A stretch of DNA of 64,000 bases, from assembly GCA_021785405.1 (NCBI GenBank), contig JAJYFF010000005.1:23738-87737 (forward strand), in the 5' to 3' direction. A program made the position numbers and the translations under genes. How positions within the stretch are numbered: the stretch's first letter is position 1; every line of letters starts with the position of its first letter. The DNA is from Pseudomonadota bacterium (GTDB lineage Bacteria > Pseudomonadota > Gammaproteobacteria > Steroidobacterales > Steroidobacteraceae). Of this stretch, positions 45,744-46,046 are shown piece after piece. The notes under the pieces were generated by a model that was not told where the DNA came from, did not search any database, and saw only the letters and a program-made list of their open reading frames with translations.

Positions 45744-46046
45744 GGGCCTGTAGCTCAGTCGGTTAGAGCAGGGGACTCATCGACAATGGTGCCTTCGCAT
45801 CGCGAGGTGCGAAGTGGACGGGATGAATTCAGGGAACCCTTAGCGGTACGGCCGATGGCAACCCTGAGCCAAGCCGGCGGTACACCGCCGGAAGGTGCAG
45901 AGACTACCTGAGCGCTGCAGTCGCGCTTAATGACAGGCTAGAGCGTCCCGCACCCCACGCGGGTGAAGAGATAGTCCACTCCCGCCGGAAACGGTGGGGC
46001 GAAGTGAATCCCTTGGTCGTCGGTTCGAGTCCGACCGGGCCCACCA
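45744..46046 (+). tRNA. tRNA with CAU anticodon, tRNA-Ile2 (lysidine) type, interrupted by a group I intron; exons 45744-45780 and 46007-46046 (encoded CCA)
   Basis: The joined exons are GGGCCTGTAGCTCAGTCGGTTAGAGCAGGGGACTCAT|AATCCCTTGGTCGTCGGTTCGAGTCCGACCGGGCCCACCA. They fold as a perfect cloverleaf: 7-bp acceptor stem, GCTC/GAGC D stem, GGGGA/TCCCT anticodon stem, GTCGG/CCGAC T stem. The sequence closely resembles E. coli ileX as I recall it, and the C4-G69 and C5-G68 pairs are present. Confidence 0.85.
45781..46006 (+). ncRNA. group I self-splicing intron (IC3, Azoarcus tRNA-Ile type), 226 nt, inserted between tRNA positions 36 and 37
   Basis: The 5' splice site follows U of CAU, which pairs with the internal guide GUG (45789-45791). 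Helices found: P2 CCUUCGCA/UGCGAAG; P3 GGACG (45816-20)/CGUCC (45944-48); P4 UCAGGG (45829-34)/CCCUGA (45862-67); P6a CCGGCGG/CCGCCGG (45874-91); P7 R/S elements AGAGACUA (GACUA 45902-06) / AUAGUCC (UAGUC 45972-76); P8 CCCGC/GCGGG; P9 CCCGCCG-GAAA-CGGUGGG (45981-98). The terminal omega-G is at 46006. Core strings GAUGGCAAC, GAGCCAAGC, GAAGGUG.AGAGACUA and UGAAG..AUAGUCC match the Azoarcus ribozyme as I remember it. Confidence 0.85.

Follow-up and report, generated by a model that had tools for sequence, protein, structure and literature searches.

A predicted self-splicing group I intron with a P7.1-like hairpin in a tRNA-Ile2(CAU) gene of a Steroidobacteraceae bacterium

Does the 64,000-nt stretch analysed here (below, the window; Pseudomonadota bacterium of the Steroidobacteraceae, assembly GCA_021785405.1, contig JAJYFF010000005.1, positions 23,738 to 87,737 of the forward strand) hold a working tRNA-Ile2(CAU) gene at positions 45744–46046, and what kind of intron interrupts it? 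On the unspliced window ARAGORN returned zero tRNA calls; on excision of exactly 45781–46006 (226 nt) it called a cloverleaf of 77 nt, with CAU as the anticodon and the CCA end encoded in the gene. The Rfam family RF00028 (Intron_gpI) matched 45768–45998 (+ strand; 70.4 bits, E 8e-16, full model 1–253) and was the sole Rfam family above threshold in the window; the original prediction, made from the letters alone, had proposed this covariance-model check, and the match lies well above the gathering score of 50. The locus is read as a functional tRNA-Ile2 gene that probably contains a self-splicing group I intron after U36, with a probability of about 0.88.

All parts of the gene lie on the + strand. 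The 5' exon (45744..45780, 37 nt) ends in the anticodon CAU, and its terminal U45780 (tRNA U36) marks the 5' splice site, where it stands opposite G45789 as a U.G wobble; the intron (45781..46006, 226 nt) contains no open reading frame (ORF) and ends in the omega-G, G46006; the 3' exon (46007..46046, 40 nt) encodes the CCA. A tRNA gene split after U36 by a 226-nt intron had been predicted with these boundaries, and they were correct, the cloverleaf being found by ARAGORN only after excision. For annotation, the lesson is that standard tRNA finders miss split genes, as happened in this window, and that without the spliced gene the decoder of AUA would seem absent from the genome.

The identity of the host tRNA was examined next to a possible elongator or initiator tRNA-Met, a reading that the program output appears to favour, ARAGORN labelling every CAU tRNA "Met". 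The spliced tRNA was compared with 5426 complete E. coli genomes; all best matches were annotated tRNA-Ile with CAU (84.4% identity over the full 77 nt), which speaks against tRNA-Met, and G1-C72 and A31-U39 are unlike initiator tRNA. The acceptor stem has C4-G69 and C5-G68, the pairs used by TilS in E. coli, and these also disagree with a tRNA-Met host. Exon context and splice position are those classed as "Ile2.5Ug", that is, under Ile2 (Williams 2020, bioRxiv 10.1101/2020.01.27.920355). A tRNA-Met host is accordingly held to be most improbable, and the gene was accepted, on similarity, as tRNA-Ile2(CAU), closer to Ile2 than to Met or fMet; C34 would presumably be modified to lysidine for the reading of AUA.

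Relatives of the intron were collected by two scans: species-representative genomes with the J6/7-P7 15-mer AAGGTGYAGAGACTA (at least 120 matches) and metagenomes with the 16-mer GTGCAGAGACTACCTG, covering P7 and the first four bases of an adjacent hairpin (at least 120 matches). Metagenome and genome matches together with the window gave at least 105 distinct complete introns; the counts over 105 homologues given below refer to the matches listed. All 105 share the tRNA-Ile2 exon context ACUCAU|...G|AAUCC and range from 225 to 367 nt in length, the window intron being the second shortest of them and a convenient construct; identity to the window intron runs from 93% for the closest relative listed to about 70% for the farthest. 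Among the matches listed from the genome scan, 13 lay in tRNA-Ile2 genes of Gamma- and Betaproteobacteria, the hosts including Lysobacter daejeonensis (GH1-9, a carrier of this lineage that is in culture), Rhodanobacteraceae, Woeseiaceae, Burkholderiaceae and Polynucleobacter; the nearest intron relatives listed were from metagenome-assembled genomes (MAGs) of Gammaproteobacteria and from Lysobacter.

For the structure, the pairing scheme of the window intron, with P7 as a pseudoknot, was projected onto a 36-sequence MAFFT alignment of diverse homologues. Standard pairs filled 95.4% of the cells, compared with 35–43% when the partners were slid by 1–3 columns; changes on both sides were found at 30 pairs (230 cells), and the observed values were reached by 0 of 500 shuffles. 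Covariation in this alignment was seen in P2, P5a, P6a, the inner stem of P7.1, P9.0 and P9. In a cross-lineage alignment (14 sequences) P3 swaps G-C for C-G and A-U for G-C, the outer stem of P7.1 changes from CCUG/CAGG to GGGUG/CACCC, and the anticodon stem formed between the two exons covaries as well (GC/AU/UA). Alignment-independent mutual information over the 105 sequences ranked P2, P5, P6a, P7.1, P8, P9 and P9.0 at the top. The minimum free energy fold alone gave P3, P4, P5, P6, P7.1, P8 and P9 (z = −2.9 vs shuffles). The helices proposed from the single sequence thus have the support of homologues in the 30 double-changed pairs and the swaps in P3 across lineages; P7, being invariant, is compatible only.

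The individual elements are as follows, intron position i corresponding to window coordinate 45780 + i. P1 (45778–45782/45787–45791) pairs exon CAU and intron C1 G2 with the guide UGGUG around the loop ACAA; its C-G, A-U and U.G pairs are retained in 35 of the 36 homologues. P2 (45793–45814) has 9 bp, 8 of which change on both sides, and is recovered by mutual information too. Its loop L2, GCGA (45802–45805), is a GNRA tetraloop closed by C-G; the earlier statement that L2 is not a GAAA loop was right, and the loop is still of the same GNRA family. P3 (45819–45825/45944–45950) is paired in 98.4% and invariant in the lineage, with swaps across lineages. P4 (45829–45834/45862–45867) encloses P5/P5a (45838–45858), which has a bulged AG and covarying intron pairs 60-76, 61-75, 64-74 and 65-73. 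P5 reads CCUUAG/GAUGG and had been taken for a receptor-like element; positions 60/76 are U/U in 81 and G-C in 19 of the 105 homologues, about one fifth having turned to G-C. The element is thus not conserved, and a fixed 11-nt-type receptor in P5 for the L9 GAAA, itself present, seems to be lacking. P6/P6a (45868–45896) is paired in 100%, 5 of 7 P6a pairs changing on both sides around a near-invariant loop, G-UACA-C; this apical loop (45880–45885) reads GURCAC almost without change across all 36 aligned Ile2 introns of the lineage, and its sequence is unrelated in other P7.1-bearing introns.

P7 is formed by 45900 and 45902–45906 with 45972–45977 (GAGACUA with UAGUCC, A45901 bulged); it is paired in 36 of 36 and invariant, its 5' strand GAGACUA (45900–45906) agrees with the Rfam consensus, and G45902-C45976 would by analogy be the guanosine-binding pair. 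The P7.1-like hairpin occupies 45907–45937 (outer stem 45907–45910/45934–45937, inner stem 45911–45915/45923–45927, loop 45916–45922, bulge 45928–45933). P8 (45951–45965; 5 bp and a 5-nt loop) is the shortest of the lineage among the matches listed. J8/7 AAGAGA and the P7 3' strand UAGUCC (45966–45977) are supported by the Rfam match and the 36-sequence alignment. P9.0 (45978–45980/46003–46005) covaries, intron pair 200-223 having the highest mutual information; P9 (45981–45998) covaries and carries L9 = GAAA (45988–45991); the omega-G (46006) is kept in 36 of 36 homologues. The U.G wobble, P2 to P9, the P7 pairing, the GAAA of L9 and the omega-G were all found where they had been claimed. Judged by eye, the core motifs (J6/7-P7, P4-P6) are IC3-like. 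Intron positions 13 (45793, the first base of P2) and 187 (45967, in J8/7) were observed to co-vary (C/A in 71, G/U in 30 sequences); this may be a tertiary contact but was treated as phylogenetic, the change following subclades together with several other positions.

The same data bear on the alternative that the intron has decayed and that the locus is a tRNA pseudogene, AUA being read by a second Ile2 or by a tRNA-Ile(UAU) elsewhere. The rarity of AUA in the window (3 of 648 Ile codons, see below) means that loss of the tRNA might be tolerated. Against decay, all core elements are intact and match the consensus of the lineage; P1, P7, J8/7 and the omega-G are identical to the invariant positions of the 36-sequence alignment; at 93% identity to the closest relative listed, the differences fall in loops or in compensated pairs; and the exons give a perfect cloverleaf. 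A decayed intron is therefore considered very improbable.

Splicing of the precursor is envisaged from group I chemistry and from work on the Azoarcus intron. The pre-tRNA would be transcribed from the intergenic region between hrpB and ggt, and the intron would fold into a P4-P6 stack and a P3-P7-P8 pseudoknot; exon CAU would pair with the guide GUG, the U36.G wobble marking the 5' splice site. Free guanosine bound in P7 (G45902-C45976) would attack after U45780; P9.0 would next place the omega-G (46006) in the same pocket, and the exons, pre-aligned by the anticodon stem, would be ligated to the 77-nt tRNA. The A/U-rich bulge of P7.1 may meanwhile dock on a neighbouring helix and brace the P3-P7-P8 domain, by analogy with P7.1/P7.2 of subgroup IA introns.

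Some points weigh against this reading of the locus. A promoter scan detected no sigma-70-like promoter upstream of the tRNA. P3, P4, P6, P7 and the outer stem of P7.1 are invariant within the lineage, hence uninformative there. The bulge of P7.1 has no covarying partner by mutual information with average product correction over the 105 sequences (positions 2 and 5 gave no signal). Lastly, the Ile2 identity of the host is based on similarity and acceptor-stem features. As a separate observation, a −10-like TAGAAT (45728–45733) stands 10 nt before the 5' end of the tRNA, without a recognisable −35.

How, then, is the intron related to that of Azoarcus sp. BH72 (A. olearius), with which it had been identified as an "Azoarcus-type" copy about 20 nt longer? 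The Azoarcus intron has 205 nt, is devoid of peripheral domains and self-splices efficiently in vitro (PMC13168695); for comparison its sequence was taken from the supplement of Williams 2020. Both introns occupy tRNA-Ile2(CAU) at the same site after U36, as the original prediction had stated, and both have the CAU/GUG P1 with U.G, a GNRA L2, a GAAA L9, the GACUA/UAGUC P7 and the omega-G. Between P7 and the 3' strand of P3 (P3') the window has a 31-nt hairpin and a 6-nt linker, whereas the Azoarcus intron and an Azoarcus-like intron of Polynucleobacter (L006) have just GA. P3 (CGGGAUG/CGUCCCG in the window), P8 (5 bp here, long and receptor-bearing in Azoarcus), J8/7 and the layout of P9/P9.0 also differ. 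The window intron is 60.6% identical to the Azoarcus intron and 55% to the Polynucleobacter one; these two are 72.6% identical to each other, and the window intron shares 70–93% with the P7.1-bearing Ile2 introns listed. In view of the lower identity and the different P3, P8, J8/7 and P9, gene and site are common with Azoarcus and the ribozyme belongs to another sub-lineage: the estimate of length was sound (226 vs 205 nt, 21 nt longer), the designation as Azoarcus-type was not.

A compact Azoarcus-type IC3 intron into which, in this copy, an extra segment of some 30 nt has been inserted between P7 and P3' would account for the common host gene and site, for the 21 nt of extra length and for the lack of the hairpin in the Azoarcus-like Polynucleobacter intron. 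It is refuted already by the conservation of the hairpin, and the chance left to it is very small: the hairpin, with covariation and an invariant bulge, was found in all 105 homologues, and a seed alignment already in print shows it too; outside the hairpin the ribozyme is likewise different (60.6% identity; P3, P8, J8/7, P9), and the hairpin is single-copy in the window, hence not a repeat element. Its reading as a dispersed repeat or miniature inverted-repeat transposable element was dropped on the same single-copy finding in the 64 kb. The element had been located exactly, at 45907–45937 between P7 and P3'; that it is peculiar to this copy proved wrong.

Relative to the Rfam consensus the hairpin is a 31-nt insert, composed of the outer stem CCUG/CAGG, the inner stem AGCGC/GCGCU, the loop UGCAGUC and the 3' bulge UAAUGA. 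Although the sequences had been selected with CCUG only, the partner CAGG was present in 105 of 105; in the inner stem pairs 2–5 are each canonical in 104 of 105, pairs 3 and 4 varying between GC, AU and CG. The bulge follows U-R-A-U-N-A, positions 1, 3 and 6 being invariant and position 4 being U in 104 of the 105, and the distal part differs freely in length, between 6 and 96 nt. With bulge and base conserved and the tip variable, the conserved and presumably functional part is the base of the hairpin together with the bulge. In other lineages the outer stem reads GGGUG/CACCC, CUGG/CCAG or GAUG/CAUC. Among the genome matches listed, about 40 of about 105 real introns have an element between P7 and P3', in three flavours: the hairpin type of the window; a ...UGAGG...RAUAA... 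type, seen in Asn/Thr genes of cyanobacteria and Ile2 genes of Burkholderiales; and a two-hairpin type in Patescibacteria.

Most likely, by analogy, the hairpin is a tertiary brace whose bulge would dock against a nearby helix within the P3-P8/P7 domain; P7.1/P7.2 in IA introns and the A-rich bulge in Tetrahymena P5abc are parallels. Instead of a brace, P7.1 might serve to bind a protein or a different RNA (for example a cofactor of splicing, or a regulator tying the supply of tRNA-Ile2 to a signal), as bulge bases that are invariant and yet lack an intramolecular covarying partner, and a variable tip leaving only the hairpin base to matter, would suggest. Invariant positions are incapable of showing covariation anyway, and the bulge motif recurs in unrelated hosts (the tRNA-Leu of Mga42.Leu.1Ug, a locus in a Clostridium MAG, the ribonucleotide reductase gene of a phage and a tRNA of a jumbo phage), which makes a host-specific partner unlikely; a binding site is thus improbable, and the tertiary brace is preferred. 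Some candidates for the contact or fold of the bulge were rejected. The P6a loop GUACAC as its partner was dropped, P7.1-bearing JAIPUR010000020.1 (L090, below) and Mga42 having unrelated P6a loops; a kink-turn, an 11-nt GAAA receptor and a UAA/GAN motif gave no fit because G also occurs in place of the "A" in the supposed GA, and because the bases of the 5' strand are in ordinary pairs (R-U, G-C).

Among other known systems, some seeds of Williams 2020 also bear a P7.1. Mga42.Leu.1Ug, Dba165.Lys.2Ug, Pam37.Asn.4Ug and Mba55.Phe.2Ug share with the window a hairpin between P7 and P3' and the core signatures AAUUCAGGG, AGCGYCC for P3' and AUGAGAUAGUCC; Mga42.Leu.1Ug has the window's own motif, CCUG-AGCUUAU...AUAGGCU-UAAUAA-CAGG, paired in the consensus-structure line (SS_cons), and the three further seeds have a related hairpin with an AAUAA bulge. 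These seeds differ from the window in host tRNA and insertion position. Subgroup IA introns (phage T4 td, Twort) and tmRNA introns carry extra helices at the same topological place; the IA introns have two hairpins there (P7.1 + P7.2) and the window one, the likeness being one of position, and the J6/7-P7 and P4-P6 sequences of the window are IC3-like, unlike subgroup IA. With the IC3 intron of cyanobacterial and plastid tRNA-Leu(UAA) the window intron has in common compactness, a place in a tRNA anticodon loop and exons aligned by the anticodon stem; that intron stands in another tRNA, at a site within the anticodon, and its classical form is without P7.1.

The predicted ribozyme is, as far as its sequence tells, a member of a widespread lineage, occurring chiefly in gammaproteobacterial tRNA-Ile2 genes, with an IC3-like core and one P7.1-like hairpin. 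It fits the definition of Ile2.5Ug exactly (tRNA-Ile2, after anticodon-loop nucleotide 5, U-1, G-omega; CUCAU/c...g/AA), with no difference at the class level. The view that tRNA genes of bacteria rarely contain group I introns, with four known cases, is outdated: 5292 such introns in 21 settings have been counted, 3453 of them in the four classical settings Leu.3Ug, Arg.5Ug, fMet.2Ug and Ile2.5Ug (Williams 2020, bioRxiv 10.1101/2020.01.27.920355), and each of the two scans made here gave at least 120 matches. The window intron adds one example to a class counted in thousands and would not surprise a specialist. The P7.1 module is a modest structural feature and apparently an undiscussed one: neither the hairpin nor a structural subdivision of Ile2.5Ug is taken up in the text of that paper, and literature searches of an incomplete library gave no paper that describes the module.

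A wider reading can be put forward tentatively and is more doubtful than probable: that P7.1 with its U-R-A-U-N-A ("RAUNA") bulge is an undescribed tertiary-contact module marking a distinct structural subclass of IC3-like ribozymes, and that this subclass is spread over bacterial tRNA genes (Ile2, Leu, Asn/Thr, Lys, Phe) and over protein and tRNA genes of phages. If true, the module would replace or supplement the tetraloop-receptor clamps by which the Azoarcus ribozyme is held together; it would count as a novel RNA 3D motif and could serve as a marker to follow the movement of one ribozyme lineage from gene to gene and between phages and hosts. In any case the bulge is a small, well-defined target for structural work on ribozymes.

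What the cell may demand of the tRNA was estimated from codon usage. Among the 84 Ile codons of the three neighbouring genes none was AUA, and among the 648 of 32 ORFs with high G+C content at third codon positions (about 14,000 codons, e.g. 43101–45638, 46144–47916, 47935–49377) there were 3. AUA being nearly unused in the ORFs of the window, the demand for the intron-bearing tRNA is very low. An intron-less copy of tRNA-Ile2 was found neither in the 64-kb window, where no second tRNA gene was called, nor in any of the loci retrieved. The original prediction that essential decoding of AUA depends on splicing by the ribozyme is thus a plausible one, though not proven.

The gene lies between hrpB (43101–45638, − strand) and a gene for gamma-glutamyltranspeptidase (GGT). 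The mechanically called GGT ORF begins with GTG 45994, within the intron; a plausible start is instead ATG 46144, followed by a signal-peptide-like N-terminus, and the product read from there is identical to that of a metagenome gene call. Long ORFs that run across the tRNA are spurious and due to the high G+C content. A promoter and terminator scan of the + strand yielded nothing usable. Synteny was examined by tblastn of HrpB, GGT, POT and VanZ of the window against 14 loci with related introns, with no matches, so that these comparisons do not demonstrate vertical descent of the intron at one locus.

Several further loci were noticed during the scans. On JAIPUR010000020.1 (L090), a phage-like contig (YopX, RNA ligase, dUTPase, ThyA) binned with a Methanosarcinaceae archaeon, a group I intron (74.9 bits) that includes a LAGLIDADG ORF splits a ribonucleotide reductase gene at 1549–2391; the intron carries the same P7.1 motif, CUGGAG..CUUAAUAACCAG, and the contig is either mis-binned or from an archaeal virus. 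A contig labelled Candidatus Pacearchaeota archaeon (L018) gave RF00028 at 1943–2170 (83.1 bits) inside a split tRNA call; two others also labelled archaeal (L050, L059) had the 15-mer match only, with no Rfam match and no split tRNA call. Mis-binning has been suspected for the same kind of archaeal case (Williams 2020, bioRxiv 10.1101/2020.01.27.920355). Among IMG/VR viral contigs (L244–L363), 15 of at least 121 AAGGTGYAGAGACTA matches lay inside split tRNA genes; those listed were mostly Leu-UAA, also Asn, Lys and Thr, one of them on a 361-kb contig, and host contamination is possible.

Jumbo phages infecting E. coli and Klebsiella also gave matches to the window pre-tRNA, at about 73% across the 5' exon and half of the intron, its first. 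In Escherichia phage Turkey5 (PQ471516.1, ~289050–289354; L243 1201–1505) an unannotated Ile2-like tRNA(CAU) in the phage tRNA cluster is split at the same site by a 230-nt intron (289087–289316; RF00028, 95.1 bits) that begins, as in the window, with CGACAAUGGUG; its P7.1 hairpin has the outer stem GAUG/CAUC and the bulge UAAUA, the spliced product is a 76-nt cloverleaf, and the intron stands immediately upstream of a gene for an HNH homing endonuclease. Similar matches were obtained for Escherichia virus TH47 and for Klebsiella phages Muenster, KP13-7, RCIP0023 and phiKp_21. According to a 2014 review, the group I introns known from phages at that time all interrupted protein genes, and none was known in a phage tRNA gene; the intron-split tRNA(CAU) of jumbo coliphages could repay follow-up.

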